64,000 nt of DNA from positions 82,321 to 146,320 of the forward strand of contig CAZQVF010000002.1 in assembly GCA_964596735.1 (NCBI GenBank), in the 5' to 3' direction. The position numbers were made by a program, and so were the translations under genes. This stretch comes from an uncultured Gammaproteobacteria bacterium. Lineage in GTDB: Bacteria; Patescibacteriota; Patescibacteriia; UBA2591; UBA6264. Below are positions 232-51,122 of this stretch, one piece after another (position 1 is the first letter of the stretch; each line of letters opens with the position of its first letter). The notes beneath the pieces were generated by a model, which saw only the letters and a program-made list of their open reading frames with translations, searched no databases and was not told where the DNA came from.

Positions 232-489
232 ATGGCTAAAAAAGATATTCATCCAAAATATTATCCAAAAGCAAAGGTCAAATGTGCCTGTGGCGCTGAA
301 TTAAAAGTGGGCTCAACTCAAAAGCTAACCGAAGTGGAAATTTGCTCAAATTGTCATCCTCTTTATACTGGTAAACAGAAATTTATTGATACGGCTGGAA
401 GACTAGAAAGATATGAAAAAATGGTGGCTAAATCTTCTGCTTTAAAAAAGAATATTAAGGATAAAACTAAAAAGAAAAAAACAAAATAA
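232..489 (+). CDS. rpmE: 50S ribosomal protein L31 with K-rich C-terminal tail
   Basis: MAKKDIHPKYYP...CxxC...CxxC...LYTGKQK is the L31 signature. The stop TAA is embedded in the repeat element ATAAGAACC. Confidence 0.9.
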   Translation: MAKKDIHPKYYPKAKVKCACGAELKVGSTQKLTEVEICSNCHPLYTGKQKFIDTAGRLERYEKMVAKSSALKKNIKDKTKKKKTK

Positions 490-545
490 GAACCTGCGTT
501 CGCAGAATCTTGAAATTAAATAACAATTTAATTATAAGTAAAACT
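486..545 (+). repeat. Conserved intergenic element, copy 1 (stop-overlapping palindrome AAGAACCTGC-N-GCAGAA + TTGAAATTAAAT + AATTTAATTATA)
   Basis: ataagaacctgcgttcgcagaatcttgaaattaaat... is recurrent in the window (see finding). It lies between rpmE and prfA. Confidence 0.7.
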
Positions 546-572
546 TGAAACTAAATATCAAGTTAATTAAAG

Positions 573-1616
573 ATGCAAGATCAAGCTGATCAATTTAAAG
601 AACAAGCTAAGGCTTTAGAGGATCAATTACAAGATCCTAATGTTTATAATAATCCAGAAAAGTTAAGAGAAATTTCTCAAAAATACAATCAATTAAAAGA
701 TTTAATAAGGGATTTTCGTCAATTACAGGAGATTAATCAGAAGATCTTTAACACGGAAAAACTTTTGAACGAAGAACCAAACGCTGATATGATTAATCTG
801 GCTAAAAAAGAGGTTAAACTACTAGAAAAAGACAAAAAAATACTAGAGAAGAAAATAAAAGAACAAACTAAGCCTCAAAGTAAAATTGATAAAAAAAATG
901 CTATTATTGAAATCAGAGCGGGTACGGGTGGTGGTGAAGCGGCCCTATTTGCCGCTGATTTATTTAGAATGTATTCTCGCTATGCTGAAAGAAAGGTCTG
1001 GGGAATTCATCTAATTTCTTCCCATCCCACAAGCATTGGCGGGTTTAAGGAGATAATCTTTGAAATTAGAGGACCAGGGGCTTATCAGGCTTTAAAAAAT
1101 GAAAGTGGAGTTCATCGCGTTCAACGTATTCCAGAAACAGAAAAAAGCGGCCGCCTTCATACCTCGGCTGCTTCAGTTGTTGTTCTCCCTGAAGCTGATC
1201 CTATTGATATAAATATAGATCCAGGTGACCTTAAAATTGATACTTTTCGTGCTTCAGGTCATGGTGGACAAAACGTTCAAAAAAATGAAACCGCCATTAG
1301 AATTACCCACCTGCCGACTGGTTTAGTTGTTTCTTGTCAGGACGAGAGAAGTCAAAAACAAAACAAAGAAAGAGCATTAACTGTTCTTCGCTCGCGTCTA
1401 CTCGTTATTGAAGAGGAAAAAAAACATAAAAACTTAAAAAGAAAAAGACAGTCCCATATTGGCACTGGTGATCGTTCAGAAAAAATCAGAACATATAATT
1501 TTCCTCAAGATCGGGTTACTGACCATCGAGTTAAAAAATCCTGGCACGATCTTAATCAAATTCTAAATGGTGGCTTAGAACGGATTATTAAATATCTGGT
1601 AACAAAAAATAATTAA
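573..1616 (+). CDS. prfA: Peptide chain release factor 1
   Basis: GGQ motif (SGHGGQNVQK) and RVQRIPETE (PxT-type anticodon motif), IRAGTGGGEAALFAADLFRMYSRYAE. Confidence 0.9.
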   Translation: MQDQADQFKEQAKALEDQLQDPNVYNNPEKLREISQKYNQLKDLIRDFRQLQEINQKIFNTEKLLNEEPNADMINLAKKEVKLLEKDKKILEKKIKEQTKPQSKIDKKNAIIEIRAGTGGGEAALFAADLFRMYSRYAERKVWGIHLISSHPTSIGGFKEIIFEIRGPGAYQALKNESGVHRVQRIPETEKSGRLHTSAASVVVLPEADPIDINIDPGDLKIDTFRASGHGGQNVQKNETAIRITHLPTGLVVSCQDERSQKQNKERALTVLRSRLLVIEEEKKHKNLKRKRQSHIGTGDRSEKIRTYNFPQDRVTDHRVKKSWHDLNQILNGGLERIIKYLVTKNN

Positions 1617-2662: not shown

Positions 2663-2666
2663 GGGC

Positions 2667-3335: not shown

Positions 3336-3392
3336 AAACTTTTGGTTTTAAAATTAAAATACCTTAACTTCTTAGTTCCGCCAAACAGGTTC

Positions 3393-4511
3393 TCATAATG
3401 ATATCATATCTTCATATTTTGTAAATGGTTGATGAGTGACTACACTCTCTACCAGGCCAATAGATATCAGGCTGATTAATAATGAGCTCCCTCCATAGCT
3501 AACAAAAGGTAGGGGCACCCCAACAACAGGAACCAGCCCAATATTCATGCCAATATTAATAAAGGCTTGGAAGAAAATAGAAAGGGTGGTTCCTAGAATT
3601 AAAATCAAACCAAAATTATCATAAACAGTCCGAGCCAATCTAATTAAACGATAAAAAAGACCGGCGTAAATACCCAAAAGAAGTAGACAGCCGATAAAAC
3701 CAAATTCTTCAGCTAAAACAGCAAAGATAAAATCTGTTTCTCCGGCTGGTAAAAACCTTAATTGCGATTGTGGGCCCAAACCAAAGCCCCTGCCGACAAC
3801 TTGACCTGAACCAACGGCCACAATTGACTGAGTAATTTGATAGCCGCGGTCTAAGGGATCTCCTTGTGGATTAATATAGGTTAAAATTCTGTCTTTTTGA
3901 TAATCTTGCAAAAAGAATAACCAAGATGAAGAGAATACCAGAATAAGAATGACTAACAAACTAATAAAATGTTTTTTATTCTTATCAACCAAAAAGAGGA
4001 TGCCAAACCAAAGAATAATAATCATTAGAGCCGAACCTAAATCTGGCTGACGAATAATCAAAAAGATTAAAGGCAAGATCAAGATAAAACTAATTAATAT
4101 GTGTTTAAGGCGGACTGGTAAACGAGCTTCTTGCCAGAATTTAGCTAATATAATAATGGCGGTCAATTTTGCTAACTCAGCTGGTTGAAAATTAAAAAAT
4201 CCAAGGCTTAACCATCCTTGAACTCCACGAAAAACCTGACCAAAGAATAGCACACCAATTAAAAGTAAAATTGTCAGAAGATAAATTATATAAGCAGAAG
4301 AGCGGACAAAACGAAAATCAGTTAAGAAAACAATTAAAAATAAAATAAGCCCAATCAGGGCAAAAATACATTGTTTAAAAAAATCACCAGTACTTTCTCC
4401 TTCAACAGCCAAAGACAAACTATACTGAATAACTAAACCAAAAACGATTAAAAGAACCGTTAAAATAAATAAAATTGCATCAAAGCGTTTTAATTGAACA
4501 AGATTAATCAT
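3393..4511 (-). CDS. ftsW: SEDS-family peptidoglycan glycosyltransferase (FtsW/RodA)
   Basis: Polytopic membrane protein with SEDS motifs (GFGLGPQSQLRFLPAGETDFIFAV, VPVVGVPLPFVSYGGSS). Confidence 0.85.
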   Translation of the reverse strand: MINLVQLKRFDAILFILTVLLIVFGLVIQYSLSLAVEGESTGDFFKQCIFALIGLILFLIVFLTDFRFVRSSAYIIYLLTILLLIGVLFFGQVFRGVQGWLSLGFFNFQPAELAKLTAIIILAKFWQEARLPVRLKHILISFILILPLIFLIIRQPDLGSALMIIILWFGILFLVDKNKKHFISLLVILILVFSSSWLFFLQDYQKDRILTYINPQGDPLDRGYQITQSIVAVGSGQVVGRGFGLGPQSQLRFLPAGETDFIFAVLAEEFGFIGCLLLLGIYAGLFYRLIRLARTVYDNFGLILILGTTLSIFFQAFINIGMNIGLVPVVGVPLPFVSYGGSSLLISLISIGLVESVVTHQPFTKYEDMISL

Positions 4512-5405: not shown

Positions 5406-5464
5406 GGGGTTGGCAGAATAAAATTATGTGCTAAAATTATATCTTAACCGATTAAATTAAAATT

Positions 5465-5535
5465 ATAAGAACCTGCATTTGCAGAACCTTGAAATTAAAT
5501 ATTATTTATTATAGATAATAAAGTAATTTAATTAT
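5465..5535 (+). repeat. Conserved intergenic element, copy 2 (promoter-like; ends at the ATG of the 5536 gene)
   Basis: ataagaacctgcatttgcagaaccTTGAAAttaaat-17nt-TAGATAAT...gtaatttaattatATG. Confidence 0.7.
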
Positions 5536-5829
5536 ATGACAACTCAAAACTTCTTTTATATCACCTCCTCTTCTGCCATTATTATCTTGTCTCTATTGTT
5601 TGTCGTCCTGATAATCTTGGGCATTGTTATTGCCGTAAGAATTGCCAAAACATTTAGAAACGTGTCTCAGGCCTCAGAACAAGTCAATAAAACAGCAAAA
5701 GAATTAAGAGAAAAACTAAGAGTCTCTGCCTTAATGGGAACTTTTATGGAAGGGTTAAAGGAAATTATTCTCTTGGTAAAAGAAAAACGGGAGAGAAATG
5801 AAGGAAAGAAAAAAAAGAAAAAAGATTAA
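5536..5829 (+). CDS. Small membrane protein with K-rich C-terminus
   Basis: One strong TM segment (IIILSLLFVVLIILGIVIAV); follows a promoter-like repeat. Confidence 0.5.
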   Translation: MTTQNFFYITSSSAIIILSLLFVVLIILGIVIAVRIAKTFRNVSQASEQVNKTAKELREKLRVSALMGTFMEGLKEIILLVKEKRERNEGKKKKKKD

Positions 5830-5891: not shown

Positions 5892-8800
5892 ATGTTTACT
5901 CATCTTCATGTCCACAGTCATTACTCTTTGCTTGATGGTTTATCAAAAATTGATGGACTGATTGATCAAGCCAAAAAACATAAAATGAAATCCTTGGCCT
6001 TAACTGATCACGGCGTAATGTATGGCGTGATTGAATTTTATCAAAAAGCAAAAGAAGCCGGAATTAAACCAATTATTGGAGTTGAGGCATATGTGGCCAG
6101 ACATGGCCATTTAAATAAAAGGGTAAAAATAGATGAAAAACCTTATCACTTAATTCTTTTGGCCAAAGATGAACAAGGGTATAAAAATTTAGTTAAACTT
6201 ACCACTATTGCTCATTTAAAAGGTTTTTACTATAAACCCAGAATAGATTTTGAGCTTTTGAAAAAATATTCTCTTGGATTGATTTGTTTGAGTGCTTGCA
6301 TTCGAGGAGAAATTCCCCAATTAATTCTTGAAAAACAAAAAGACAAAGCTATTAAAAGAGCTTTGGAGTATCAAGAAATTTTTGGTGCAGAAAATTTTTA
6401 TTTAGAAGTTCAAGATCATCCAAAAAGCAAAGAGCAGACTTTAATTAACAAGGCTCTTTTTAATATTTCTAAAAAACATAACATTCCTGTGGTCGCTACC
6501 AATGATGTTCATTATGCTAAAAAAGAAGATGCAGAAATTCAAGATATTCTTCTTTGCTTGCAAACAAAAAGAAAACAACAAGATAAAGATAGAATGTGTT
6601 CTTTGGACTATGATCTTTCTCTCCAGCCTGAAGCAGAAATAAAAGAAGCCTTTAAAAACCATCCTGAAGTGATTACTAATACTCAAAAAATTGTTCAGGC
6701 CTGCAATCTAGAGATTGAATTAAAAAAGACCAAGCTCCCCTACTTTCCTTTACCAGAGGGGGAAACAGCTGATCAATATTTAAGAGAACTTTGTGAAGAA
6801 AAAATTAGTAATCGTTATCCAAGAAAAACCAAACAAGTTACTGATCGCCTTGATCATGAATTATCAATGATTGAAAAAACTGGATTTGCCTCTTATTTTT
6901 TAATTGTTCAGGACTTTGTTAACTGGGCTAAGGATAATAATATCGTGGTTGGACTAGGTCGCGGAAGCGTCGCCGGCTCAATTGTCTCTTATGCCCTAAA
7001 CATTACTGATATCGACCCTTTAAAATATGGGTTACTTTTTGAAAGATTTTTAACTGGTTCAAGAAATGAACCACCAGATATTGACTTGGATTTTGCAGAT
7101 ACGCGACGTGATGAGGTTATTCACTATGTTGAAGAAAAATATGGCCGAGATCATGTCGCCCAAATAATTACTTTTGGGACCATGGCGGCCCGAGCAGCGA
7201 TTAGAGATGTGGGACGAGTGCTTAATTATCCTTATACCTTTTGTGATAAATTAGCTAAAATGATTCCTTTTGGTAATACTTTGGAAAAAGCCTTAAAAGT
7301 CTCTGATGAGTTAAAAAACATTTATCAAACTAATGAAGATGCTCAAAAAATTATTGACGCAGCTAAAAAGTTAGAAGGAGTAGCTCGTCACGCATCAAAA
7401 CACGCCTGTGGTGTGGTAATTGCCCCTGAGGCTTTAAACCAATATGTTCCTACCCAATATGATGTCTCTGGCGGAGAAAAAACAATTATTACTCAATATG
7501 ACATGCACGCTGTTGAAGATATTGGTCTTTTAAAAGTGGATTTTTTGGGACTGAAAAACCTAACTATCATTGAAAGAACATTAAAATTAATAAAATACCG
7601 CTATGACAAAGATATTGATATAGCTCAAATACCCCTTGATGATGCAAAGACTTTTAAACTTTTACAAAAAGCAGAAACAACTGGGGTCTTTCAATTAGAA
7701 TGTCTAACTGGAGACACTGTTGTTTCTAACACAACGATAAAAAAATTATTTGAACAAAAAAATAAGAAAGTTTTAGAATCTGTTTATTTAGATGAAGGAA
7801 AAATACACAAGAATAAAATTAAAAATATTTTATACAAGGGCGAAAAAGAGGTTTATACATTAATTGCCAATAACAATCGTTATATAAAAACAACATTAAA
7901 CCATTATTTTTTAACGGAAAATGGCTGGAAAAAATTAAAAGACATAAAAATAGGAGACAAATTATTAATTAAAGAAAAGGCTAAACATTTAGTTTATAAT
8001 ATATGTAAAAATTGTGGCAAACAAATTAGTGGTAATCCCTTAAGAAAAAGTGTGTTTTGTTATCGCTGTTCAGCAGGTTTTTATAAAAATCCCTCTAAAC
8101 CGTCTTCTAGAAAAAAAATATCAAAATCAATAATTAATTTTTATCAAAAAGGGGGCAGGCCATGGAATTATGGAATAACCACCGAAAATAGCGAATTATG
8201 GAAACAAACCGCTAAAAAAATATCAAAAGCTCTTACAGGAAAAACGCTTGAAGACCGTTATGGCAAAGAAAAAGCAGAAAGAATAAAAAAAGAGATGTCA
8301 GAAAAATTCAAAGGAAAAAATAATCCAATGTTTGGAAAGCCGTCTCCTCATCGAAAGGGTGGATTTAGAAAAGATCTAGGGCATTATGTTCGTTCTGCCT
8401 GGGAAGCAGATTTTGCCAGAATTTTAAAATTGTATCACTATAAATATGAATATGAACCGATAACATTTGAATTAAAATTACCAAATAACGAAATCTACCA
8501 TTATACCCCTGATTTTTATGTTAAATCCAATAATACCTTTTATGAAGTTAAAGGATGGATGCACGATTTAGACGAAAAGAAAATAGAACTTTTCCAAAAA
8601 CAATACCCACAATACAATTTTGTATTAATTAATAAAACAAAATTTGCTGAATTCGCTCTACAATATAAAAATTTAATTAAATGGGAATGTCCTCGTATAC
8701 CTATTGAAAATAGCTTTAAATTCATAAAAGTCAAAAAAATATTCCCTTCTGGTAAAGAAAAAACTTATGATATTGTAATGGAATCTCCTGGGAATAATTT

Positions 8801-11410: not shown

Positions 11411-13210
11411 TTGTTTATGAAAAAAATACCTTTAGAAATCCTTCGTCACTCAACCAGTCATTTAATGGCCGCGGCTGTTTTAGAATTATTTCCCCAGGCC
11501 AAGTTTGGCATTGGTCCGGTAATTGCCAATGGTTTTTATTATGATTTTGACATAAAAGAAAGATTAACTCCTCAAGATTTGAATAAAATTGAAAAAAAAA
11601 TGAGGCAGTTGGCTAAAAAGAATTTAAAATTTGTTAAAAAAGAAATGACCATTGACCAAGCCATAAAGCTTTTTCAAAAATTAAAACAACCCTATAAAGT
11701 AGAGCTCTTGAAAGAAATAAAAGAACGCGGAACCACTGAAATGAAAGAACTTGTTGAAAAAACAATAAAACAAAAAACAAACAAAGTAACTATTTATGAA
11801 TTAGGTAATTTTGTTGACCTTTGTCGTGGTCCTCATGTCAGTTCCACTGGACAGTTAGGTGCCTATAAATTAAATAAAATTGCCGGGGCTTATTGGCGGG
11901 GTGATGAAAAAAATAAAATGCTTCAGAGGGTTTATGGCCTGGCTTTTTCTCAACAAAAAGAATTAGATGAATTTTTAAAACTTCAAGAACGAGCTGAAAA
12001 AAGAGATCATCGAAAATTAGGCCAAGAATTAGATTTATTTCAAATTAACGAAGATGTTGGCCCAGGGCTAATTCTTTGGCACCCCAAAGGAGCCACTTTA
12101 AAAAGAACTATTGAAAATTATGTTTTAGATGAATATATTAAAAATGGTTATCAAATAGTTAGCACACCTCATTTAGCTAAATTAAATCTTTGGAAAATAT
12201 CTGGTCATGATGATTTTTACAAAGAAAATATGTTTCCAGGCATGTCTATAAAGGAACTGGATAGAGAAGAGAAAGAAGATTATCAAGTAAAGCCAATGAA
12301 TTGTCCATTTCATATTGCTATTTATCAAAATACCATCAAAAGTTATCGTGATCTTCCTTTGCGTTATACAGAATTAGGCACGGTTTATCGTTATGAGAAC
12401 TCAGGAGTTTTACATGGTTTAACCCGGGTTCGAGGCTTTACTCAAGACGACGCTCATATTTTTTGCACCCCTGAACAGCTTGATAAAGAAATAGAAACTA
12501 CAGTTAAGTTTGCTATAAAAATATTAAAAACATTTAGTTTTAAAGAATATAGCGTTTATCTTTCTACTCAGCCAAAAAAATTTGTTGGCACTCAAACTAA
12601 TTGGAAAGAATCAACCAGCGCTTTGGAAAAAGCTTTGAAAAAATTCAAAATTAAATATGAAATTGATTTAGCCGGTGGTGTTTTTTATGGACCAAAAATT
12701 GATATTAAGATAAAAGATAGTTTGGGTCGGGGTTGGCAATGCACTACCATTCAAGTTGATTTTAATTTACCAGAAAAATTTGATGTCACTTATGTTGACA
12801 ACAAAGGAAAGAAACAGCAACCAATTATGATTCATCGAGCTCTTTTGGGCTCATTAGAAAGATTTATTGGTGTTTTAATTGAACACTATGCTGGGGATTT
12901 TCCTGTTTGGCTCTCCCCTATTCAAGTTTATTTAACTCCGGTTGGTAAGGCTCATTCTTCTGTAGCGAAAAAATTATCTCAGGAATTAGAAGAATTAGGA
13001 ATTAAAACAGAAGTTGATATTCTTAATGAAACTATTTCTTATAAGGTAAGGAAGGCGGAAAAACAAAAAATTCCCTATATCTTAGTCATCGGTGACAAAG
13101 AAGCTAAGGGAAAAACCTTGAATGTAAGAATGAAAGGAAATGTGGTTAAAAAAATGACCAAGAAACAATTTTTTGATAAAATACTAAAAGAAATCAAGGA
13201 TAAAAAATAA
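11411..13210 (+). CDS. thrS: Threonyl-tRNA synthetase (lacking the N-terminal TGS domain)
   Basis: Editing/N2 domain HSTSHLMAAAV...GIGPVIANGFYYDFD, class II core (RDHRKLG, motif 2/3) and C-terminal anticodon-binding domain. The stop TAA is inside a repeat element. Confidence 0.9.
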   Translation: MFMKKIPLEILRHSTSHLMAAAVLELFPQAKFGIGPVIANGFYYDFDIKERLTPQDLNKIEKKMRQLAKKNLKFVKKEMTIDQAIKLFQKLKQPYKVELLKEIKERGTTEMKELVEKTIKQKTNKVTIYELGNFVDLCRGPHVSSTGQLGAYKLNKIAGAYWRGDEKNKMLQRVYGLAFSQQKELDEFLKLQERAEKRDHRKLGQELDLFQINEDVGPGLILWHPKGATLKRTIENYVLDEYIKNGYQIVSTPHLAKLNLWKISGHDDFYKENMFPGMSIKELDREEKEDYQVKPMNCPFHIAIYQNTIKSYRDLPLRYTELGTVYRYENSGVLHGLTRVRGFTQDDAHIFCTPEQLDKEIETTVKFAIKILKTFSFKEYSVYLSTQPKKFVGTQTNWKESTSALEKALKKFKIKYEIDLAGGVFYGPKIDIKIKDSLGRGWQCTTIQVDFNLPEKFDVTYVDNKGKKQQPIMIHRALLGSLERFIGVLIEHYAGDFPVWLSPIQVYLTPVGKAHSSVAKKLSQELEELGIKTEVDILNETISYKVRKAEKQKIPYILVIGDKEAKGKTLNVRMKGNVVKKMTKKQFFDKILKEIKDKK

Positions 13211-13275
13211 GAACCTGCTTTGCAGAACCTTGAAATTAAATATCATTGTATATATAGTAAAGTAATTTAATTATA
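13207..13275 (+). repeat. Conserved intergenic element, copy 3
   Basis: ataagaacctgctttgcagaaccttgaaattaaatatcattgtatatatagtaaagtaatttaattata upstream of the 13301 gene. Confidence 0.7.
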
Positions 13276-13300
13276 AATAATTATTTTGATTATAAAAATT

Positions 13301-18557: not shown

Positions 18558-18564
18558 TTCTATA

Positions 18565-18633
18565 TTATAAGCAAAGCTTGAAATTAAATTATTATATATA
18601 GAATTAATGTAATTTAATTATAGCATAAAAATT
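18565..18633 (+). repeat. Conserved intergenic element, variant copy 4 (lacks the CTGC/GCAG palindrome)
   Basis: attataagcaaagcttgaaattaaattattatatatagaattaatgtaatttaattatagcataaaaattATG (miaA). Confidence 0.6.
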
Positions 18634-22442: not shown

Positions 22443-22470
22443 TTGACAAGTAAATAATTTCTGTTATAAT
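22443..22470 (+). promoter_or_regulatory. Sigma70-like promoter for rnpB (TTGACA-16-TATAAT)
   Basis: TTGACA at 22443-22448 and TATAAT at 22465-22470, about 11 nt before the RNA 5' end. Confidence 0.65.
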
Positions 22471-22481
22471 AAAATAGACTT

Positions 22482-22844
22482 AAGTAGGTGGCGATCGCTC
22501 TAAATATGACCTAGTCATATTTGGGGAGGAAAGTCCGAACACTCCCTTATTTAACATGAGGAGCCGGGTAGCAGGTAACTCCTGTCGTCGCGCACATTAC
22601 GAGCATGATAGAGGTGCGAACAGAGACGCTTAAACCTGAAAAGGTAAAAGCACCCCTTGGGGTGAGCTCTAAAAGAAATTTTAGAGGTGAAACGGCTAAA
22701 CCCTTACCTGAGTGAAAGGCCAAACAAAAAACCCCTGAATTTCAAAATTCAAGGATGGTAGGCCGTTTGAGTCTAGTTGCAAAGCTAGATCTAGATAAAT
22801 GATCGCGCTCTCACGAGTAACAGAATTCGGCTTATTGCCTACTT
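22482..22844 (+). ncRNA. rnpB: RNase P RNA (bacterial type A-like)
   Basis: 5' AAGUAGGUGG pairs with 3' UUGCCUACUU (P1). Contains GGAAAGUCCGAAC (P4 5' strand) and ACAGAAUUCGGCUUA (P4 3' strand / conserved 3' region). Confidence 0.85.
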
Positions 22845-33728: not shown

Positions 33729-33751
33729 AAAAATTAATTTTAATTGTTATT

Positions 33752-43300: not shown

Positions 43301-43498
43301 GATTAAACCTAAAAGGCTTAGTCCAATTTTAACAATGTTACCAATTACTTGGGGCAAAGGGGCTTCTCCATAACCGGCTGCTTCGCCAAAATTTATTAAC
43401 TCTTCATTTCCCAGTGTTTGAGCCTGAACCGGTAAAATAAAATAGAATAAACAAAAAACCGTAAACACCAAAAATGTAATTTTAAAAATATTTTTCAT
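34367..43498 (-). CDS. Giant (3043 aa) cell-surface protein: signal peptide + VirB2/TrbC-like pilin double-TM N-terminus, Ig/IPT-like domains, tandem internal repeats, extensive Cys-rich modules, C-terminal Hint/BIL domain
   Basis: Signal peptide MKNIFKITFLVFTVFCLFYFILPVQA. Two TM helices separated by a short loop (IGLSLLGLIAVIIMIAGGFIWM / LIGLLIIVFAYAIVSFIM). An IPT-like CSPWISHLEPAQGSKGECITLHGSCF. Repeated ...YMRYNNGAWGVTGHGSYIATLTC modules. Dense C-x-C arrays. CFIAG...FLVHN at the C-terminus. The antisense ORFs listed in the track over this region are spurious. Confidence 0.85.
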   Translation of the reverse strand: MKNIFKITFLVFTVFCLFYFILPVQAQTLGNEELINFGEAAGYGEAPLPQVIGNIVKIGLSLLGLIAVIIMIAGGFIWMTSGGVADKVTKAKKIISSGLIGLLIIVFAYAIVSFIMGRLSGVTGEGLGGSGGCTPGLCCGPGLRCDSGGSCNISDPDCSLPPDAFRIRKIETTHGGLEQNYHQDVYLCSAVQPIFNHSVDGLIIEDLETAGDLRIETGASPVSGSWQTRNNIIIFKHPDLFDPNTSYEAYFPKAISDTQGEFLQVCLAAGDCLDAGSYFLWNFMTGETLDTVPPEIVATYPIFDQSDPDYPDQNVSRKPSIEASFSEPIDMTTVADENNYPIETNIWLARLDGQGGTIVETLAKEIFEIGAISNGFRISLRDENLLQAFTWYRIHVGNIEDLCMNQMDEPLEWEFQTNDQAPGISFWHPTGTLVCPDTDISVTFGTQMYGNLVRFEISGGGDNFDFEMRPSEFDPPYEEIVIGGVFRVDDPGDPVNNHFRVFTFDPDDNLQTESDYQVTVLTDLVIDQQGTLLSDFWEFTTATMGNCFCSPWISHLEPAQGSKGECITLHGSCFEGTATQPALPIKIDFILNGTPTQTAIEGSDNNYLTTQVPDIYSQGDRPEVQATIEYDGGDQLTSNLVEFYVDSNEQANGPCLFSINPSAGYSNETEVDLSGIRFGVESAGSKVVFYNNKLAVYQTWSDQQISSALVPLGSEDGLVYVENDQGMSNELPFDILQHPGGPGQACQEATFCPDNPPYNCSTPIYNCLYEATDTCRCCCDVITNSCEAPLECMANQGSCTGDDRGLCCGCESDDQCGNGLGCGFLDPNQCCYAQPTITSNSPTGEAVCLNTAIEANFSQDMDRNSLNTNNIKLKKLPPLIESKLGIDYTTTQYTSCLDQSGIYTGRCDVNWWDYSFNVSADGDYQIYVETSNYSADVKDFGEDGVCSEPGVQHHVKVFVDNVEKGDFCADATLGHQISNVSLGNITAGTHTIRLEWDNDWSESPHDSNIRIYQVDLRQESSEQDVSYNLIINEDNDQVNLLPIDCDLDPYTGYKVELIGGLDGQGIRDSLGVSMDDYTWQFATGPEDNICEISEIIVSPDSAIVESFEDSVIYTAQGYNFNNNPICVAEFFWQSDDINIAVVSPSQALETTVSPVEGEGEQTTDISATISGYSGSGEFTSVLSPPVLPPEDPETFDLPQVFEDSTCLNNIQTPSPRHLSSQACRNALISARFNMEVDNLSNTNIIVEKCNLGNEMFDSASCTTDVSGTIVETDKSFVNPQHNAVHLYPDITTANRFCFEHGYTSFKATYSTVGPIDDYMRYVDGEWVEESSAERIDTLLCSKGFIYTPGVLLDQNYWYQVTLKSGETGIVDSVDNYQLDGNKDGIEDDSPNDDYTWYFKTKDQAEVCSAQAIEIFEQDPVGIIIESGTKDYSALPIGPDCQILRPDTFTWTWESTEPGVATVAPQTPTYTAMATAVDLGETEIEVTATPSAGEPVTNSVDLVVAIYPNVETFQPSGSNVCRNSVIKAIFDQPMDRSSISKDTIKFFKWTTLWDDITSTVDVSAVDDIFREPTNDIPNPQHGSYYLYPSSATAQQYCLDQDYRGFDSYTTTLTLGSYMRYNNGAWGVTGHGSYIATLTCYNENKTIVNINAGLLDSNQEYQITILGGENGVESIYGVGMAADYNSTFTTSDQICTLSEVDIEPKTIDFTSTDESENLIAYTYDNQGNEILGIPDVYDWTWSWESSDPAVVSITGSSSEDETAMAQDRNGRVQITATATIVGSDPAISVLGITEANVLICEVPWTFEDAAGPGFAPNTQFKLSYCRGDLAQAEADRLPELAEASIEGSDPLIKEFLFSVGDSGDVIGLKVFNNPKRLSVLNWYEQNVPNPGKPSNFVIDNYYALREGRTTYVGATNLGSDTDNFSNPQHGSYYLYPDNATAQQYCVDDQNYSGFESYTTTGSGGGYMRYNNGAWGVTGHGSYIATLTCADQGVYTYVYLISYNDGASPKTIEIFNQILYNWEFNINLDNYFEDKPKLQNDLLRLYNFQEIKDELEEHYQEQGEYPTLGAGTYVLSKSNSLWPSWTNTLSQALGESLPVDPINEFNGPCAGCIDEPDSQCDNTCYNPSTQIFEIPDGSHVYQYYAPDQSGCLGEYYTLSVNLEYGNGGIIWKGEEDVITTQSDSSGDFNYIYESPGAPVCGDGTLQCGEQCDCGSGYGTCCSPFQSGYCPGTTFPSEGFIPAATCEGLGYESEPTGFLECNNCSWSGVSCALKANGEACSGDANCHSGSCVDGVCCDMSCTGSCEYCGEGFGGSAGTCHNVSAGNDPRNICNDTSGCLTGNCDGSGFCTDYYTSGDRNCSACQTCDGAGSGTCVNKTNNTQDTVGSTLCQDTCKRCYNGSCVNQTAGQDPFNQCEIGWISCDSDCVRGGGSGLCGSSGSCDPSGGTENIPSGSVCTGAGEITSVSASNYCGSPENNCSNNSCSGTRWYRSCNGSGACRGVGDYTGGHLQPIMAQANCVLYPDCTLAYRSTSNYCGAIVDDCTNGACVGYRYYRGCDGSGACKADATGSYQQTVYPNTGKTLTGSCSPNGTTLCDFSSWNYCNTDCFKTRDELRCSAGHACSYDVGNNGSIVAENKVCVNGSEISVSSTYYCDIDNSCTSGACSGTIYYRSCAYNGVCKTDNSGAFGVTINADAGNILTASCGQSTAQCTTCYQCDGTGDCDPVTDTGPPPYLGCDTGTCCAGVCCPTGEVCNNGACVPPCDCTTGACCDGCYYRSSEYVCRPADSECDISETCTGSSSSCPADQSVSDGTECMEACGECQSGICDLPPKNACTPGEGDYVGAGQCRYCEDDCQWGPSEDGCPTDSTYCSDCVATCGSSCDDDQFCCGDEAGCFIAGTLITTENGFKNIEDIKVGDIINGYDLEKNRIQKVKVMQTFEHEKQDYYIMTLLDYSVLKVTNIHPIYTRKGYLKVKDLNIWDEVGKINNNGRLEFVKIIKIKKAIDQQTVYNLEVDKLHNYFANDFLVHNKDYYCGPGSGLKRNCGDLDQ
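34430..34834 (-). other. Hint (intein-like, BIL-type) domain, 135 aa, 20 aa from the C-terminus of the giant protein
   Basis: Starts CFIAGTLITTENG (block A-like) and ends NDFLVHN (block G His-Asn). The +1 residue is Lys, which is not a nucleophile. There is no endonuclease insert. Confidence 0.7.
37530..37760. repeat. Internal repeat A within the giant gene
   Basis: A 70-nt stretch identical to 38586-38655 (acaagtaagtgttgcaatatagcttccatgtcctgttacaccccatgccccattattatatctcatata), with flanks ~80-85% identical. Confidence 0.8.
38575..38800. repeat. Internal repeat B within the giant gene (paralogous to 37530-37760)
   Basis: See repeat A; a third, more diverged copy lies near 39540-39700. Confidence 0.8.
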
Positions 43499-43999: not shown

Positions 44000-44218
44000 T
44001 TATTTAATACGACCGACTTTTTTTAAAAAAGCCATTTTTTCTGCTCTTTTTTTTCTTTGGAGAGCACTTTCTTTTTTTAATTTTTGACTTTTCGGCTTAA
44101 TATAAAACTTACCTTTTTTATGTTGATTTATTACTCCGCTTCGCTTTACTTGTTCAGAAAATCTTCTTAAAAAAACATTTAAAGGTTCTCTTTGTTTTCT
44201 TTTAGCTTCTACGCTCAT
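44000..44218 (-). CDS. rpsU: 30S ribosomal protein S21
   Basis: Basic 72-aa protein with EPLNVFLRRFSEQVKRSGV...KRAEK, an S21-like pattern. Confidence 0.75.
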   Translation of the reverse strand: MSVEAKRKQREPLNVFLRRFSEQVKRSGVINQHKKGKFYIKPKSQKLKKESALQRKKRAEKMAFLKKVGRIK

Positions 44219-45063
44219 AAATTTAATAGTTTCTTAACCAAATTATCTAATTCTTTATCTTGATAAAGTTCGATTGTAACTTTAATCTTTTTATTTCTTT
44301 TAATAATTTTTACTTTTGTTCCTAAGGCCTCAGTTAAAGCTTTTTCTTTTTCTAAAAACTTTGGGTCCAGTTCAATATTTTTTCTTACTCGTTTCCCTGA
44401 CATTATCTTCTCTGTTTCCCTTACTGTTAGCCCTAATCCTAAAATTCTTTTTAATAAAGCCTTTCGTTTTTCTTCTGTGTCTACTGAAAGTAATGCTTTG
44501 GCATGCCCTTCGGTAATTCTTTCTTGAGCAATTGCTTTTTGAATTGACTCGGGCAAGGTTAAAAGCCGTAAAGTATTGGCAATACTGGCTCGAGCCTTCC
44601 CCATTTTTTGCCCTACTTGTTCCTGAGTTAAATTAAACTCTTCCATTAAACGATGATATCCCTTTGCCCTTTCCATGGGATTAAGATCTTTTCTCTGAAT
44701 ATTTTCTAAAAGAGAAATAGCTAGTTTTTCATTTGCTTCAATTGAGCGAACAAGGGAGGGAACAGTTGTCAGTTCTAAAACCTTAGCGGCCCGCCAACGC
44801 CTTTCTCCAGCAATTATTTGATATTGATCAGTGCCAATCTTGGTCAAAATTAATGGCTGAATAATTCCATGTTCTCGAATAGAATTAATCAACTCTTCTG
44901 TTTCTAAATGAGGAAAGTTTTCTCTTGGTTGTTCTGGATTAGATTGAATCTGATTAATTCTAATTTCTAAGACCTGCTCTCCTGTTTGTACTAAAACTTC
45001 CTCTGTGGCTTTTTTTATTGTTCTGGTTGGAATTAATGATCCCAAACCACGTCCTAATGGCAT
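44215..45063 (-). CDS. parB: Chromosome partitioning protein ParB
   Basis: ParB box GERRWRAA plus HTH region. It overlaps rpsU by 4 nt. Confidence 0.85.
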   Translation of the reverse strand: MPLGRGLGSLIPTRTIKKATEEVLVQTGEQVLEIRINQIQSNPEQPRENFPHLETEELINSIREHGIIQPLILTKIGTDQYQIIAGERRWRAAKVLELTTVPSLVRSIEANEKLAISLLENIQRKDLNPMERAKGYHRLMEEFNLTQEQVGQKMGKARASIANTLRLLTLPESIQKAIAQERITEGHAKALLSVDTEEKRKALLKRILGLGLTVRETEKIMSGKRVRKNIELDPKFLEKEKALTEALGTKVKIIKRNKKIKVTIELYQDKELDNLVKKLLNL

Positions 45064-45161
45064 CCCTCACCTTTCAGCGATGCATTTTAAATAAACACAT
45101 CGGTTAATTATTTAACTATCTGACTTTTATTTTCCCCTCATCTTACAGTAAATACACTTGT

Positions 45162-45965
45162 TTAAAAATGCGAAGCATTATCGCTGCAGGGTGAGGGATT
45201 ATTAAGTAAAAATTCTTTGGCTAACCTCTTATAAGCATGAGCTCCTTTTGATTTTGGAGCGTATTCTAAAATTGTCTGACCATAACTTGGAGCTTCGGCT
45301 AAACGAACATTGCGGGGAATAATAGTGCGAAAAATTTTATAAGGAAAATGTTTATACAATTCTTCCCAGACTTCAGCTGAGAGACGTCCTCGGCCATCAT
45401 ACATAGTTATCACCGCTCCTAAAATTCCTAAATTGGGTTGCAGGTTTTCTTTAATCAATTTAATTGTTTCTAAAAGCTGGCCCAATCCTTCTAAGGCATA
45501 GTATTCTGCCTGAACCGGGATTAAAACCTGGTCAGCCGCCACCAAACTGTTAACCGTAATTAAGCTTAATGAAGGTGGGGTGTCAATAAAGATATAATCA
45601 AAATTCTCCCCTGCTTTTTCGGCTAATATATCTTTAATTACCTTAGATAAAATAAACTCTCTTTCTGGAATATTCACTAATTCAATATCTGCTCCGGCTA
45701 AATTTTCATTAGCCGGAATAATCCAAAGATTTCGTCGCGTCGCCGTAATACTTGAATGCAAAGGAATTTTTTGGCTTAAAACTTCGTAAATTCCCTGGGA
45801 GCGGTCACCAATCCCTAAACCAGAACTGGCATTAGCCTGAGGATCTAAATCAATTAACAGGATTTTTTTACCTGAAGCAGAGAGATAAGCGGCTAAATTA
45901 ATTGCAACATTAGTCTTACCCGTTCCTCCTTTTCGATTACATATAACAATGACTTTTGGCTGCAT
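45162..45965 (-). CDS. parA: Chromosome partitioning ATPase ParA/Soj
   Basis: Deviant Walker A KGGTGKTN, DLDPQAN, IDTPPS. Confidence 0.9.
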   Translation of the reverse strand: MQPKVIVICNRKGGTGKTNVAINLAAYLSASGKKILLIDLDPQANASSGLGIGDRSQGIYEVLSQKIPLHSSITATRRNLWIIPANENLAGADIELVNIPEREFILSKVIKDILAEKAGENFDYIFIDTPPSLSLITVNSLVAADQVLIPVQAEYYALEGLGQLLETIKLIKENLQPNLGILGAVITMYDGRGRLSAEVWEELYKHFPYKIFRTIIPRNVRLAEAPSYGQTILEYAPKSKGAHAYKRLAKEFLLNNPSPCSDNASHF

Positions 45966-45971: not shown

Positions 45972-46247
45972 CTAAATTTTTTTATTTAAATAATGTTTAA
46001 GCGACCTTTTGATATAATTCCTGCCCCACCCTGTCTTAAAAAATTTTTCTCGTCTTTTAGCGTCTTCTAAATGAAGAAAAGCTTCATAATAGATTAAAAC
46101 AAATGGCACTCTTGGTTTAGTAGATCTTGACTCTTTATTATTATGATCTTTTAATCTACGCTTTAAATCTTTTGTTAGACCAATATAGAATTTGCCATCT
46201 TTTAAACTGCGAAGAATATATACATAGTAAAAAATTTGGGCGGGCAT
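45972..46247 (-). CDS. GIY-YIG nuclease-domain protein (small, Slx1/UPF0213-like)
   Basis: YVYILRSLKDGKFYIGLTKDLKRRLKDHN matches the GIY...YIG signature with the conserved R and E downstream. Confidence 0.7.
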   Translation of the reverse strand: MPAQIFYYVYILRSLKDGKFYIGLTKDLKRRLKDHNNKESRSTKPRVPFVLIYYEAFLHLEDAKRREKFFKTGWGRNYIKRSLKHYLNKKI

Positions 46248-46304: not shown

Positions 46305-46415
46305 ATAAGAACCTGCTCGCTTTACTCGCAGAACCTTGAAATTAAAGTTTAATTGTATATAAATTAAGGTAATTTAATTATAAGCAAAGCTTGAAATTAA
46401 TAAATTAATTATAAC
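46305..46415 (+). repeat. Conserved intergenic element, copy 5a (with expanded loop) directly followed by variant copy 5b
   Basis: ataagaacctgctcgctttactcgcagaaccttgaaattaaag...ggtaatttaattata then agcaaagcttgaaattaataaattaattataac. There is no plus-strand CDS downstream. Confidence 0.65.
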
Positions 46416-47004: not shown

Positions 47005-47055
47005 TGCAAAAGCTTAAAATTAAACATAGGTAATTCAAGATAATTTAATTTTAAT
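47005..47055 (+). repeat. Degenerate copy 6 of the intergenic element
   Basis: gcaaaagcttaaaattaaacataggtaattcaagataatttaattttaat. Confidence 0.45.
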
Positions 47056-47063
47056 AAGGTTGA

Positions 47064-47096
47064 AGGGACTACTTTGGAGAGCAGTCCCTTTTTAAA
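47064..47096. terminator. Bidirectional hairpin terminator
   Basis: GGGACTactttggagagcAGTCCC followed by TTTTT on the plus strand; on the minus strand it sits immediately 3' of the ICMT-like gene stop. Confidence 0.65.
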
Positions 47097-48540: not shown

Positions 48541-48564
48541 AATTGTTTAATTAAAAAATATTTA

Positions 48565-51042
48565 TTAAATATTAAATGGAAGAGTAAAACAAAAAGTTGT
48601 TCCTTTGTTTTCTTCAGATTCAAACCAAATCTTTCCGCCATGAGCTTCAACTAATCCCTTGGCCAGATAAAGGCCAAGTCCTGTCCCTGGTTTTTGACTA
48701 ACATTATCAGCCCTAAAAAATCTGGAAAATATTTTCTCTTGCTGTTCTTTGGGAATGCCTACTCCTTGATCAGTATTGGAATAAAAAAGTTCTTTTTCTC
48801 TTTGGGCAAGTTTTATTTCAATTTCTGAACCTTCTGGAGAATATTTAATGGCGTTATCAAGGAGAATAATAACTACCTGGCGAATCTTTTCTAAATCAAC
48901 GCTAACCTTGGGCATTGATTTCTCTGGTTTGGACACAGAGACTTTAGCGTTTTTCTTTTCTAAATAAGGCTTATATTCTTCTACTACTTTATCAATTAAT
49001 TCTTCAAATTGAATTTCATCTTTTTTAAATACTAATCTCCCCCCTTCTAAACGAGAAACATTGAGCAGGTCGTTAACCAGTTCAATCATGCGATTGCTAC
49101 CGCGATAAATTCGATCCACTTGTTCTCTGTCTTTTTTCCCCAATTTATGACCAATTGATTTTAACAAGGTTTCTGCTCCCCATTTAATAATGGTCACTGG
49201 GGTTCTTAGTTGATGAGAGGCTAAAGAAACAAATTCTGATTTAATTTTTTCAACCTCTCTTTCTTTGGTAACATCTCTGAATACTCCGACTGCCCCGACA
49301 ACAATACCTTTTTCATCTTTAATCGCCGCGGCTGAACAAGCAACTGGGATTTCTTTGCCATCTTTGGTCATTAAAACTGTGTGGTTGGTCATTTTACTTA
49401 ACTCCCCTGTTTGTAAAGCATGCTGCATAAAAGCAATGTTTTGCTTTTTTTCTTTTTCTGTTAAGAATTTTAAAACCTGATTATATGGTTGACCCAGACA
49501 GTCTTTTTCTTCAAAACCAGCGATTCTCTCCACGGCTGGATTTAAAAGAGCTAATCTACCTTGGGCATCAACCACAAAAACGCCATCAGCTATACTAATT
49601 AAAATCGCTTCAATTCTGTTCTTCTCCTGTTCAATCTTATTCTTGGCCAAGGCTAATTCATTAGTCCGGTCTTTAACCTTTTGTTCCAAAGTAGCATAAT
49701 ATACTTTTAAGCGTCGGGCCATTTCATTAAAACCTTGGGCCAATTCTTGAATTTCATCTTTGGTTTTAATTCTAATTTGATAATCCAGGTTACCTTTACT
49801 GATTTCAAGAGCACCTTTGGTTAACTCCTTAATCGGAGCGGTCACCAAGCGTGCACTAAAGAAAATCAGAACAATTAAAATTAAAGTAATAATACCAAGA
49901 ACAATAAAGATAAAGTTTCGAGTAGCCAAAGCACTGGCCACGATTTCTTCAACCGGAACCACTAAGCCCAGCCCCCAAGCTGTATTTTTAATTGGAGCAT
50001 AAGCAATATATTTTGTTTTTCCTCCCAGCTCAATCTTTTCCAGTCCTTCTTTGCCCGCTCCTATTAATTTAATTATTTCCCTTAGCTGAGGATTAGAAAC
50101 ATCATTTAAATTATGTTCTCTAATTTCTGCTAATTCTAATGATTCTTTTTCCCATTCTAAATCAGCCCGAGCCCTGACTGGTAAGCTGATTGGTCTGCCC
50201 TCAGAATCAATCATAAAAGCATACCCCGTCTCCCATAATTTAATATCTAAGATACGGGTGGTGATGTCTTCCAGGGTCATATCAATGCCGGTAATGGCCT
50301 CCATCTTATTATCTCTATAAACCGGAGAAAGAGCTGAAACCATTAAACCATGGCCGGTAACATCAACATAAGGCGGGCTCCATTGAGTTAACCTGCCAGA
50401 GTTATGAATTTCATTTAAATTATCCCAGAAAACCGGATCAACCCCTTCTTTGTTTAAATCAGCCGGTAAGACATCCATGGCAAAGCTTCCTTTTTGATTG
50501 GGCTTAGGATCTGAATTAGGATAAAGACGATACCAGCCATAGTTCCCGCCAATGATATATAGATTATCAATATTAGAATTCTCTTTTTTAATTGAAGGAA
50601 AAACAAAATCTAAAGCAGCTGAGAGCTCTAAATCACGTTTGGTTAAATCATTTAATTCATACCAATTAAAAACAATGACTGAGCTAGTTTCGTTTGCTCC
50701 ATTGCCATATTGTCCTTCTGAACCCTGAAACAAATTCTCAATTGACCAATAATCAGGGTGATAAAAAAGCAAAGGATTATTATAGACTTCAGTCGCATAA
50801 TCAGCCAAATTTTTACTACTGGAACCAACTTTTGATAAAACCAAATCAATCTTTTCTGCTTCATCATGAGAAAGGCTTTCTAAATAAGTGATTGCTTCTT
50901 TTTTTAATTCTTCAATGGTTCTGGAAACAGAAAAAAAGTTAAGAAGAATTGGACATAAAACAAAAAATAGAAAGATGAGAGCTAATTTTACATTTAAGCC
51001 TAAACCTTTTTTTAGTTTATTTTTTTTAAAATCAGGCTCCAT
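48565..51042 (-). CDS. Sensor histidine kinase with extracytoplasmic Cache-like domain, HAMP, PAS, HisKA and HATPase_c
   Basis: Two TM segments flank a ~330-aa sensor domain. HAMP (IKELTKGALEISKGNLDYQI), PAS (FVVDAQGRLALLNPAVERIAGF), H-box SHQLRTP, and G-boxes GTGLGL. Confidence 0.85.
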   Translation of the reverse strand: MEPDFKKNKLKKGLGLNVKLALIFLFFVLCPILLNFFSVSRTIEELKKEAITYLESLSHDEAEKIDLVLSKVGSSSKNLADYATEVYNNPLLFYHPDYWSIENLFQGSEGQYGNGANETSSVIVFNWYELNDLTKRDLELSAALDFVFPSIKKENSNIDNLYIIGGNYGWYRLYPNSDPKPNQKGSFAMDVLPADLNKEGVDPVFWDNLNEIHNSGRLTQWSPPYVDVTGHGLMVSALSPVYRDNKMEAITGIDMTLEDITTRILDIKLWETGYAFMIDSEGRPISLPVRARADLEWEKESLELAEIREHNLNDVSNPQLREIIKLIGAGKEGLEKIELGGKTKYIAYAPIKNTAWGLGLVVPVEEIVASALATRNFIFIVLGIITLILIVLIFFSARLVTAPIKELTKGALEISKGNLDYQIRIKTKDEIQELAQGFNEMARRLKVYYATLEQKVKDRTNELALAKNKIEQEKNRIEAILISIADGVFVVDAQGRLALLNPAVERIAGFEEKDCLGQPYNQVLKFLTEKEKKQNIAFMQHALQTGELSKMTNHTVLMTKDGKEIPVACSAAAIKDEKGIVVGAVGVFRDVTKEREVEKIKSEFVSLASHQLRTPVTIIKWGAETLLKSIGHKLGKKDREQVDRIYRGSNRMIELVNDLLNVSRLEGGRLVFKKDEIQFEELIDKVVEEYKPYLEKKNAKVSVSKPEKSMPKVSVDLEKIRQVVIILLDNAIKYSPEGSEIEIKLAQREKELFYSNTDQGVGIPKEQQEKIFSRFFRADNVSQKPGTGLGLYLAKGLVEAHGGKIWFESEENKGTTFCFTLPFNI

Positions 51043-51045
51043 ATA

Positions 51046-51122
51046 TTTCTATAATTAAATTACCTTGATTTTCATACGATAAATATTTAATTTCAAGGTT
51101 CTGCGAAGCAGGTTCTTATAAT
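51046..51122 (-). repeat. Conserved intergenic element, copy 7 (minus orientation; promoter-like for the histidine kinase gene)
   Basis: Minus-strand reading: ataagaacctgcttcgcagaaccttgaaattaaat...ggtaatttaattatagaaatatATG. The TAA inside it is the stop of the 51116-51808 gene. Confidence 0.7.

Follow-up and report, generated by a model that had tools for sequence, protein, structure and literature searches.

A lineage-specific family of two-hairpin interspersed repeats, probably mobile, at gene boundaries in Patescibacteria

Short interspersed repeats of bacteria fall into a few described kinds, each of which has traits in common with the element that concerns us here, a non-coding repeat found between genes throughout a 64-kb stretch of contig CAZQVF010000002.1 (the whole stretch is called the window below). 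The REP/BIME elements of gamma-proteobacteria, which are associated with RAYT, a Y1 transposase of the HUH class, are likewise short, extragenic, high-copy repeats, with a GC-rich imperfect palindrome that is conserved in structure rather than sequence and has conserved single-stranded bases at its foot; they too form mosaics with other short motifs and tandem clusters, lie after stop codons and inside operons, and have no terminal inverted repeats. The Correia elements of Neisseria (CREE/NEMIS) and the RUP, BOX and ERIC repeats share with it a non-coding unit of 50-150 bp, TA-rich insertion sites with what may be, in the present element, a short duplication, some 100 copies in a small genome, sites that are occupied in some strains and vacant in others, terminal promoter-like hexamers, hairpins able to affect transcripts and, in the case of ERIC, conservation across a genus or family. 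The palindrome-associated transposable elements (PATEs) of the IS200/IS605 kind resemble it in the absence of terminal inverted repeats, in hairpins near the ends, in a loop signature suggestive of a single-stranded DNA hairpin, and in a short sequence shared by the left flank and the right end, from which head-to-tail arrays would arise too. Finally, it is short, non-coding, multi-copy and dispersed, as are the miniature inverted-repeat transposable elements (MITEs) mobilized by DDE transposases, but it lacks their terminal inverted repeats.

The departures from these families are equally clear. Where the foot of the REP hairpin is GTAG, the present element has (A)GAAC at either side (every copy reads AAGAAC ... 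GAACCTT); it has an additional AT-rich palindromic core of 27-47 bp and direct ATA(A) flanks, its host belongs to the Candidate Phyla Radiation (CPR), and no RAYT was found in the ~1.4 Mb of loci from relatives that we compared. An IHF site and terminal inverted repeats of 26 bp characterize Correia elements, whereas the element has only a subterminal inverted repeat of 8-10 bp within its core, and is a modular, two-hairpin unit with a hypervariable GC stem. Unlike in PATEs, its two hairpins do not resemble each other, it is flanked by a direct repeat and its orientation bias relative to gene direction is weak (30 against 17), and neither a Y1 transposase nor TnpB was seen in the flanking open reading frames (ORFs), the window ORFs or those loci. 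It also looks in part like an ordinary sigma-70 promoter coupled to an intrinsic terminator, with TTGAAA, AT-rich -10-like hexamers and a GC hairpin by the stop codon, but its box spacing is not that of a -35 and a -10, there is no U-tract in the direction of the gene, and it is a portable sequence, found either way round and missing from orthologous sites that function in its absence. The element behaves like a MITE or a REP/BIME repeat, yet by definition it is neither of these, nor a Correia element, nor an IS200/IS605 derivative. The family is undescribed, and small interspersed bacterial repeats are new to this phylum in the searchable literature, in which a 14-mer of the element was found on neither strand, a 12-mer match was unrelated, and no such repeats are described for Patescibacteria. 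We consider it probable, albeit with reservations set out below, that these repeats constitute a lineage-specific, non-autonomous, mosaic and mobile family of the MITE/REP-like type, with units of ~50-90 bp that are tolerated at gene boundaries.

Distribution and anatomy of the repeat

Counts in the window far exceed those expected: 5 (0.00 expected) for the bipartite motif TTGAAATTAA-N15-40-TAATTTAATTATA, 7 (0.14) for exact CTTGAAATTAAA and 16 (3.7) for GTAATTTAATTATA with up to two mismatches. The shuffles rule out chance or low complexity as the source of these motifs. Relatives were found by a scan of one genome per species for the exact bipartite motif, and ~1.4 Mb was fetched in all; L-numbers denote the loci or contigs of relatives that were compared with the window. 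Conservation in related genomes had been proposed as a check on the original prediction, which was made from the window alone, and the element, exact motif and flanks included, does recur on many contigs from at least 14 assemblies of Patescibacteria lineage. These metagenome-assembled genomes (MAGs) are labelled as Patescibacteria or, among third-party annotation MAGs, mislabelled as 'Gammaproteobacteria' or 'Saccharibacteria'. In unrelated taxa the motif is matched without its flanks, seemingly by chance. The window belongs to a metagenomic contig of 266 kb (JGI 3300009374). The closest named relatives of the prfA product are from Parcubacteria-type bacteria (65% identity) and Kuenenbacteria (60%), and the organism of the window (GC ~33%) is a Patescibacteria/CPR bacterium. 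The window is ~91% identical at the DNA level to MAG JAHIMV01, in which there are at least 24 exact cores, and it is syntenic with contigs at 74-94% identity in prfA or MiaB; at prfA loci of 58% identity or less the element is absent.

Copies are single or form head-to-tail arrays of 2-5, often identical, units, and many of them lie at contig ends or beside runs of N. Two other kinds of carrier or array were considered and rejected. Carriage by phages finds no support on IMG/VR viral contigs, where one exact hit and 39 hits to a 16-mer were all chance matches. TIGR arrays are long and regular, lie beside a tas gene and have unique spacers and box C/D motifs (PMC12045711); the present copies are dispersed or in the short arrays just described, and no Nop or Cas genes lie nearby, which likewise speaks against a CRISPR-like array.

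The unit, ~50-90 bp long and non-coding, reads ATA(A) / (A)GAACC - variable GC stem-loop - GAACC-TTGAAATTAAAT - centre of 2-24 nt - (G)TAATTTAATT / ATA(A), and folds as two adjacent hairpins, HP1 and HP2. HP1 is made up of AAG / AAC internal loop / variable stem-loop / AAC / CTT, and its pairing is maintained through clear covariation. Among 10 distinct versions of its short class, 100% of cells are paired, with 8 double changes; none of 500 shuffles was as good, and sliding the partner strand left at most 40% paired. In the long class (16 versions) 92% of cells are paired, with 13 double changes that include the conversion of an inner 2-bp stem from GC to AU. Even the 'hairpin-less' variant, AAGC-ARA-GCTT, is a mini-hairpin itself. 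Of 33 apical triloops 24 are T-N-C, and 30 of 40 inserts have C-G as their closing pair; the other strand thus reads C(GNA)G. This is the signature of unusually stable DNA mini-hairpins, for example d(GCGAAGC), and hints at a single-stranded or cruciform DNA form of the element.

Covariation in HP1 would also suit an element that acts in cis at the RNA level, be it as processing or stabilizing hairpins of untranslated regions (UTRs), compare ERIC or REP, or as a reverse-strand RNA of 70-85 nt that runs from the terminal TATAAT to the GC hairpin and UUCUUAU. The positions of the copies in 5' and 3' UTRs, the somewhat greater stability of the reverse-strand folds (z -1.0 to -3.0) and the terminator-like appearance of three window copies on that strand are all in keeping with such a role. 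However, the fold z-scores are modest and do not clearly separate the strands, the copies occur in both orientations relative to genes, a reverse-strand -35 would depend on variable flanking DNA, and the C(GNA)G loop is typical of DNA and not RNA mini-hairpins. Rfam, too, gave no hits at the elements, either at the gathering threshold in the window or even at E<=1 in three array-rich loci. We therefore regard an RNA-level function as very improbable.

HP2 joins AATTAAAT to ATTTAATT across a loop that spans ~24 nt in long cores and 2-4 nt in short ones; in the window, the short-core variants, with AT-rich arms 2-4 nt apart, are copy 1 at 486 and the downstream member of the 46305 tandem (46383-46414). 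The palindrome is kept, by way of symmetric changes, in three short-core types, AATTAAAT/ATTTAATT, AATTAAAA/TTTTAATT and AATTAAT/ATTAATT. We hold the HP2 pairing to be plausible rather than proven; covariation was dropped as a claim for it, the evidence being anecdotal, with two different registers and one supporting variant for each. The AATTAAAT/ATTTAATT pair is the sole inverted repeat of the unit and is internal to the core (subterminal, 8-10 bp), there being no terminal inverted repeats: the ends, (A)GAACC... and ...GTAATTTAATT, are not complementary.

The two best-conserved boxes lie 27 nt apart and are far better conserved than the 22-nt centre, the identity of which is 76% within a genome and 57-72% between genomes. 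Such a pattern is expected if the ends or hairpins are needed for copying, but binding of a host protein would fit it too. In the latter case the copies would be binding sites of a conserved nucleoid-associated protein, global regulator, or partition or condensation factor, selected for chromosome organization or regulation. The 11-nt and 14-nt boxes scarcely vary among at least 14 species, in contrast to the drifting centre, and the arms form an imperfect palindrome, the symmetry of which is preserved in the variants; such a proposal would predict both. It is hard to square with arm spacings of 2-24 nt, which are incompatible with one dimeric footprint, with tandem arrays, rapid gain and loss between close relatives and unrelated housekeeping neighbours, and it leaves the structure-conserved but sequence-variable GC hairpin unexplained; nor do the sites resemble parS, though parAB genes are nearby. 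The suggestion in the original prediction of a binding site for a global regulator does not fit the arm spacings, the arrays, the turnover or the neighbours either, and we give the whole class of host-protein explanations little credence. Two specific sites were also rejected. A Xer/dif-like site is suggested by the TGTATA centre and a TTAT..TTAAAT-like arm, but by reasoning the arm arrangement misfits dif, and by inspection the IHF consensus WATCAANNNNTTR misfits the core.

The repeat is a mosaic. Further modules, of the form GAACCTTG-[second GC hairpin]-TAAGAACC, occur in arrays that lack the AT-rich core; adjacent units may have identical cores yet different HP1 stems, and at one site the HP1 insert can differ wholly between genomes with 96% identical prfA. 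These swaps of HP1 at the same site and beside identical cores suggest a cassette-like exchange between copies. A second palindrome, CCCGCC-N3-4-GGCGGG, is nested within some HP1 stems (L001, L017, L046, L060, L063, L081 and L177), and HP1 may be an insertion hotspot for another mini-palindrome. The spacers of L173 (CAZXPA01), for instance 2031-2303, 5465-5621 and 7986-8110, hold other GC-rich intergenic repeats, among them CTCGCTTCGCTCG motifs and GTAGCGAA...TTCGCTAC palindromes (REP-like, with a GTAG foot), which resemble the inserts inside HP1; these GTAGCGAA...TTCGCTAC palindromes are a different repeat from the two-hairpin element.

Gain, loss and mobility

Comparison of orthologous spacers reveals repeated presence and absence. 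Between rpmE and prfA the element is present in the window, L091 and L092/L171, while L174, L093 and L094 have spacers of only 11-17 nt, and in L095/L096 a lone T separates stop and start. In L006 it sits exactly between the rpmG stop codon and tRNA-Trp, which abut in L048. A copy of L073 is lacking at the corresponding 27.8 kb site of the window, and L171 has arrays of 3-5 units at both the rpsB/rpmE and the DUF3048/L25 junctions, which are empty in the window. In the divergent spacer between the genes for the 281-aa and 97-aa proteins, the window has a copy (copy 2) by one gene and L171 a copy by the other, each without that of its counterpart; the L171 copy is in reverse, 9 nt from the ATG of the divergent gene. 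At the site of copy 3, between thrS and a giant gene, L175 and L177 have element-free spacers of 19-24 nt. The divergent PrsW/miaA spacer is filled in the window (by exactly 53 nt) and in L177 (by two units), and empty in L175, where the spacer TTCTATATTATA^CCATAAAAATT is just 23 nt long; the neighbouring genes thus do not need the element.

In all six filled/empty comparisons direct ATA(A) flanks the element on both sides. Across the wider set, ATA follows 70 of 78 terminal copies (ATAA 42 of 78), ATAA precedes 41 of 70 first units, and in head-to-tail arrays a single ATAA is shared by neighbouring units. In the original prediction the element had been described as a portable terminator/insulator-plus-promoter cassette; presence and absence at orthologous sites, with clean junctions, uphold the portability, but termination or promotion as its purpose is not established.

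Close relatives differ in gene content as well. In JAHIMV01 (L071 67-568) a small gene for a four-helix bundle, by eye 23S-rRNA-IVS/Avd-like, and one element stand between genes that are adjacent in the window (33728-33752), the insert being preceded by a (TTGATTG)n microsatellite. L175 has a block of ABC-transporter and methyltransferase genes after thrS (L175 2990-6624) that is missing at window 13210-13301, and an alanine racemase gene between recJ and serS (18383-19534), absent from the window (24957-25020); the 3' end of the racemase gene overlaps a short-core element.

The element lies in both orientations with respect to genes. Among the 57 arrays for which both neighbours could be called, 30 are co-directional and sense, 17 (~30%) co-directional and antisense to both neighbours, 9 divergent and 1 convergent. 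Sense copies occupy very tight junctions, the TAA of the element being the upstream stop codon in ~11 of 48 first units, and in antisense copies the TTATA end abuts the stop codon. This would fit an orientation-dependent tolerance, in which sense copies are harmless inside operons and antisense copies are tolerated mainly at operon ends, though the statistics are weak.

We posit that a trans-acting enzyme would recognize the conserved boxes and hairpins, possibly in a single-stranded DNA intermediate, and that it would place the unit at ATA(A), duplicating 3-4 bp there. The modules might afterwards be reshuffled as units duplicate in tandem and copies undergo gene conversion with one another. 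In a genome that is 88% coding and poor in Shine-Dalgarno (SD) sites, copies would persist only where they are harmless, that is, at gene boundaries; there, the unit would contribute an AT-rich leader and, from its opposite end, a TAA stop, and probably lets transcription through, so that it could occupy 5' UTRs, 3' UTRs and operon interiors alike. The promoter-like hexamers (forward, TTGAAA-17/18-nAnAnT; reverse and inward, TATAAT) may modulate the neighbours but would not be the reason for the presence of the element.

Several observations weigh against a mobile repeat. No transposase, RAYT or other mobilizing gene lies beside the copies, in the window or in the ~1.4 Mb of loci: none of the 85 flanking ORFs and 37 window ORFs was found to code for a transposase, and tblastn of these loci with approximate E. 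coli RAYT and IS200 TnpA queries gave nothing credible. The want of terminal inverted repeats is a misfit to the classical mechanism of DDE-mobilized MITEs. The 11- and 14-nt boxes are exact across genomes in which prfA is ~64-96% identical, for which binding of a host protein is an equally possible cause, and copies within one genome are not near-identical and thus give no hint of a very recent burst. Rather than a true duplication, the direct ATA(A) could be the target together with the end of the element, and the six comparisons are compatible with a length of 3, 4 or 5 nt. Lastly, three weak statistics favour a directional effect: the deficit of convergent spacers (1 of 57 against a baseline of 8%, p=0.044), the excess of forward over reverse copies in co-directional spacers (30 versus 17), and the shorter median distance to the next ATG for forward than for antisense copies (19 nt versus ~58 nt, p=0.047).

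One could go further and see here a new mode of mobilization, wherein a repeat with two hairpins and no terminal inverted repeats is copied as folded single-stranded DNA with C(GNA)G as a handle, inserted at ATA(A) and co-opted in CPR bacteria as a portable gene-boundary module with a stop codon, a read-through hairpin, an SD-less AT-rich leader and possibly bidirectional promoters. Insertion would then be the work either of an enzyme with no link so far to elements of this sort or of a host function in replication or recombination. We offer this as a speculative and doubtful extension of the mobile-repeat interpretation.

Promoters, terminators and neighbouring genes

A quite different proposal is that the copies are selected as expression cassettes, with the stop codon and hairpin ending the upstream message, TTGAAA/nAnAnT (17-18 nt apart) restarting transcription and GTAATTTAATTATA serving as a short SD-less leader, portability being secondary. 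The TTGAAA, originally read as a -35 with a -10 following 17-18 nt later, is indeed invariant, but a usable -10 (A2/T6, at least 4 of 6 matches) 16-18 nt downstream is present in only 51% of 55 distinct cores. This exceeds the 32 +/- 6% obtained with shuffled centres, and is an enrichment that the cassette proposal can claim; half of the cores nevertheless lack such a hexamer at sigma-70 spacing, the 27-nt distance between the boxes is not that spacing, and a scan for consensus promoters flagged copy 3 alone (TTGAAA-17-TATAGT). The RNA polymerase of the host uses canonical promoters, as shown by TTGACA-17-TATAAT at 22444-22472, which precedes the RNase P RNA and is kept in L175; that RNA is of the bacterial class A and lies at 22444-22850(+) (124 bits). 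Likewise, a conserved native promoter, TTGGCA-16-TAAAAT (5410-5437), is retained upstream of copy 2, the conserved form before the gene for the 97-aa protein being TTGGCA-16/17-TA(A/T)AAT; copy 2, which begins at 5465, accordingly lies in a 5' UTR.

For termination, the forward strand has no U-tract after the GC hairpin, where AACCUUGAAAUU stands instead. On the reverse strand the terminator-like calls for three window copies arise only via TTCTTAT and flanking Ts, and many HP1 stems have little stability (-2 to -5 kcal/mol). Some copies have a canonical terminator as a neighbour, and in L073 a reverse copy is placed between a stop codon and such a terminator. At the PrsW/miaA spacer, where divergent genes must be expressed across or out of an insert that the 23-nt empty allele lacks, the unit must either permit read-through both ways or fire both ways. 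Judged from sequence, promoter activity of the element is possible and terminator activity unlikely, and we conclude that neither is why the family exists, both being at best side effects.

The placement of copies offers the expression cassette further support: 39 of the 57 arrays point at a co-oriented gene and just one is convergent, where a terminal forward copy precedes a long ORF the ATG lies -2 to +8 nt after its end in about half of cases, the L006 element ends 1 nt before tRNA-Trp, and copies occupy otherwise tight operon junctions, such as that before rpsC in L084. Yet proximity to an ATG is expected anyway from insertion at ATA(A), tiny AT-rich spacers and few SD sites. The 17 arrays antisense to both neighbours, the functional empty sites with spacers of 2-24 nt, the retained native promoter, the reverse copy ahead of the L073 terminator and the identical tandem units with no obvious promoter use all run counter to it, as does the missing U-tract. 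On balance, we think it unlikely that the copies are selected as cassettes, and a mobile repeat tolerated at gene boundaries remains the interpretation that we prefer.

Translation initiation without SD seems to be the norm in this host, in which an SD-like motif precedes only 6 of 48 window genes and most starts lie behind plain A/T-rich leaders; the SD-less leader that follows the element is therefore not special. We also considered and set aside promoters of leaderless mRNAs, for which TAATTT and AATTAT, -10-like and each 7 nt before ATG classes 0 and +6, had been candidates; the idea is weakened by the 42 of 48 window genes that lack an SD anyway and by ATG offsets that spread from -2 to +37. 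The neighbours of the copies are diverse housekeeping genes. Among the 85 flanking ORFs there are 99 Pfam families, none of them in more than three ORFs, and no enrichment of a functional class is seen. An association with tRNA or tmRNA genes was rejected as incidental (besides the tRNA-Trp of L006, 1 nt after the element, a tRNA of L051 lies ~20 nt past the hairpin end).

Copies in the window and what they signify

The window is 88% coding and 12% non-coding, and every copy is in the non-coding part. It has six significant and three partial or decayed copies, all intergenic; nhmmer with a profile built from full units of relatives is significant at 486, 5465, 13207, 18574, 46305 and 51119(-), with E from 3e-4 to 2e-18, and weak at 47007 and 3393(-). 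The seven sites of the original prediction carry the sequence described, as inspection and an alignment over ~70 columns attest, and the leading TAA is the upstream stop codon for rpmE, thrS and the PD-(D/E)xK gene as claimed; Pfam agrees with the names given to rpmE, prfA, thrS, miaA, the histidine kinase and the PD-(D/E)xK nuclease. Two details needed revision: a decayed minus-strand copy at 3345-3397 had been overlooked, and of the five genes said to start within 0-25 nt of the end of an element, four do (at 0, 25, 11 and 7 nt) but prfA starts 36 nt away. An exact CTTGAAATTAAA at 14411 was discounted as a chance match in the coding sequence of the giant gene.

Copy 1 (486..537, +; E=3.5e-6), a short-core variant, lies in the rpmE/prfA spacer. 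Its ATAA (486-489), in which TAA 487-489 is the rpmE stop codon, is followed by GAACC (490-494), HP1 (CTGC-GTTC-GCAG, 494-505), TTGAAATTAAAT (510-521), the loop AACA, ATTTAATT (526-533) and a closing ATAA (534-537), ahead of the prfA ATG at 573. The decayed copy at the ftsW/L25 junction (3345..3397, -; E=1.1) reads TGA(stop)GAACC-TGTTTGGCG-GAAC ... GTATTTTAATTTTA, where TGA is the ftsW stop codon and the TTGAAATTAAAT box is gone; L171 has at this junction a hairpin-less copy that is better preserved. Copy 2 (5465..5536, +; E=7e-12) is a full unit with ATAA at 5465-5468, GAACC-CTGC ATTT GCAG-AACC, TTGAAATTAAA at 5489-5499 and GTAATTTAATTATA at 5523-5536, the final A doubling as the A of the ATG of the 97-aa gene. 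Downstream, the window DnaE gene (5892-10220, +; 1442 aa) carries an intein with an Intein_splicing domain; the L171 orthologue (1524 aa) has a LAGLIDADG domain, and those of L173 (1082 aa) and L174 (1062 aa) are intein-free.

Copy 3 (13207..13276, +; E=2.6e-14) is a full unit with HP1 CTGC-TTT-GCAG and its core at 13230-13275, bounded by ATAA at 13207-13210 (its TAA being the thrS stop codon) and at 13273-13276; the ATG of the giant DUF5667/DUF333 gene follows at 13301. This gene (1060 aa, 13301-16483, +) and one of 3043 aa (34367-43498, -) are the two very large ORFs of the window, both with a local GC of ~0.38, above the window average. Copy 4 (18567..18622, +), in the divergent PrsW/miaA spacer with the miaA ATG at 18634, has ATAA at 18567-18570 and its core at 18578-18622; what had been called a variant here proves to be a replacement of the long hairpin by the mini-hairpin AAGC-AAA-GCTT (18569-18579).

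Copies 5a and 5b form a tandem (46305..46414, +; E=1.9e-18) antisense to the genes on either side, GIY-YIG and DUF2238, which are both on the minus strand. Its first member is a full unit (46305-46382) with HP1 CTGCTCGCTTTACTCGCAG, and its second a mini-hairpin, short-core unit (46383-46414) of the form AGCAAAGC-TTGAAATTAAT-AA-ATTAATT-ATAA. The GIY-YIG gene directly beside the pair (45972-46247, -) codes for a stand-alone nuclease domain of 91 aa and lies just downstream of parA/parB-like genes (44215-45965). A degenerate copy (47005..47055, +), GCAAAAGC-TTAAAATTAAAC ... ATAATTTAATTTTA, is not significant by nhmmer (E ~3) and adjoins a canonical bidirectional intrinsic terminator (47064-47095). 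Copy 7 (51049..51119, -; E=1.9e-15) is a full unit with HP1 CTGC-TTC-GCAG and its core at 51050-51096; its ATAA is the reverse complement of 51116-51119, with the TAA as the stop codon of the PD-(D/E)xK gene, and the histidine-kinase ATG is 7 nt past its end. A possible further decayed short-core copy, caagaatc-TTAAATTTAAAAAACCTTTTTATTATA, lies at 63675-63746(+), with a non-significant E of ~6.

The genomes of CPR/Patescibacteria are thought to be streamlined and poor in repeats; here, about one in ten intergenic regions carries a structured repeat that turns over within a genus. Its practical consequences are that it breaks MAG assemblies, as attested by the many copies at contig ends, that it rewrites the stop codons, 5' leaders and 3' UTRs of housekeeping genes, and that it constitutes a natural marker for strain typing. 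It also poses a mechanistic question, namely what copies a hairpin element that is flanked by a short direct repeat and lacks terminal inverted repeats. Should a lineage-specific enzyme or host protein be recruited by its boxes or hairpins, they would offer a way into the study of DNA transactions in an uncultivated phylum, and if the forward copies fire transcription, they would be ready-made promoter parts for organisms that lack genetic tools. Were the doubtful new mode of mobilization to hold, the module would let operons split and re-join in extremely compact genomes.

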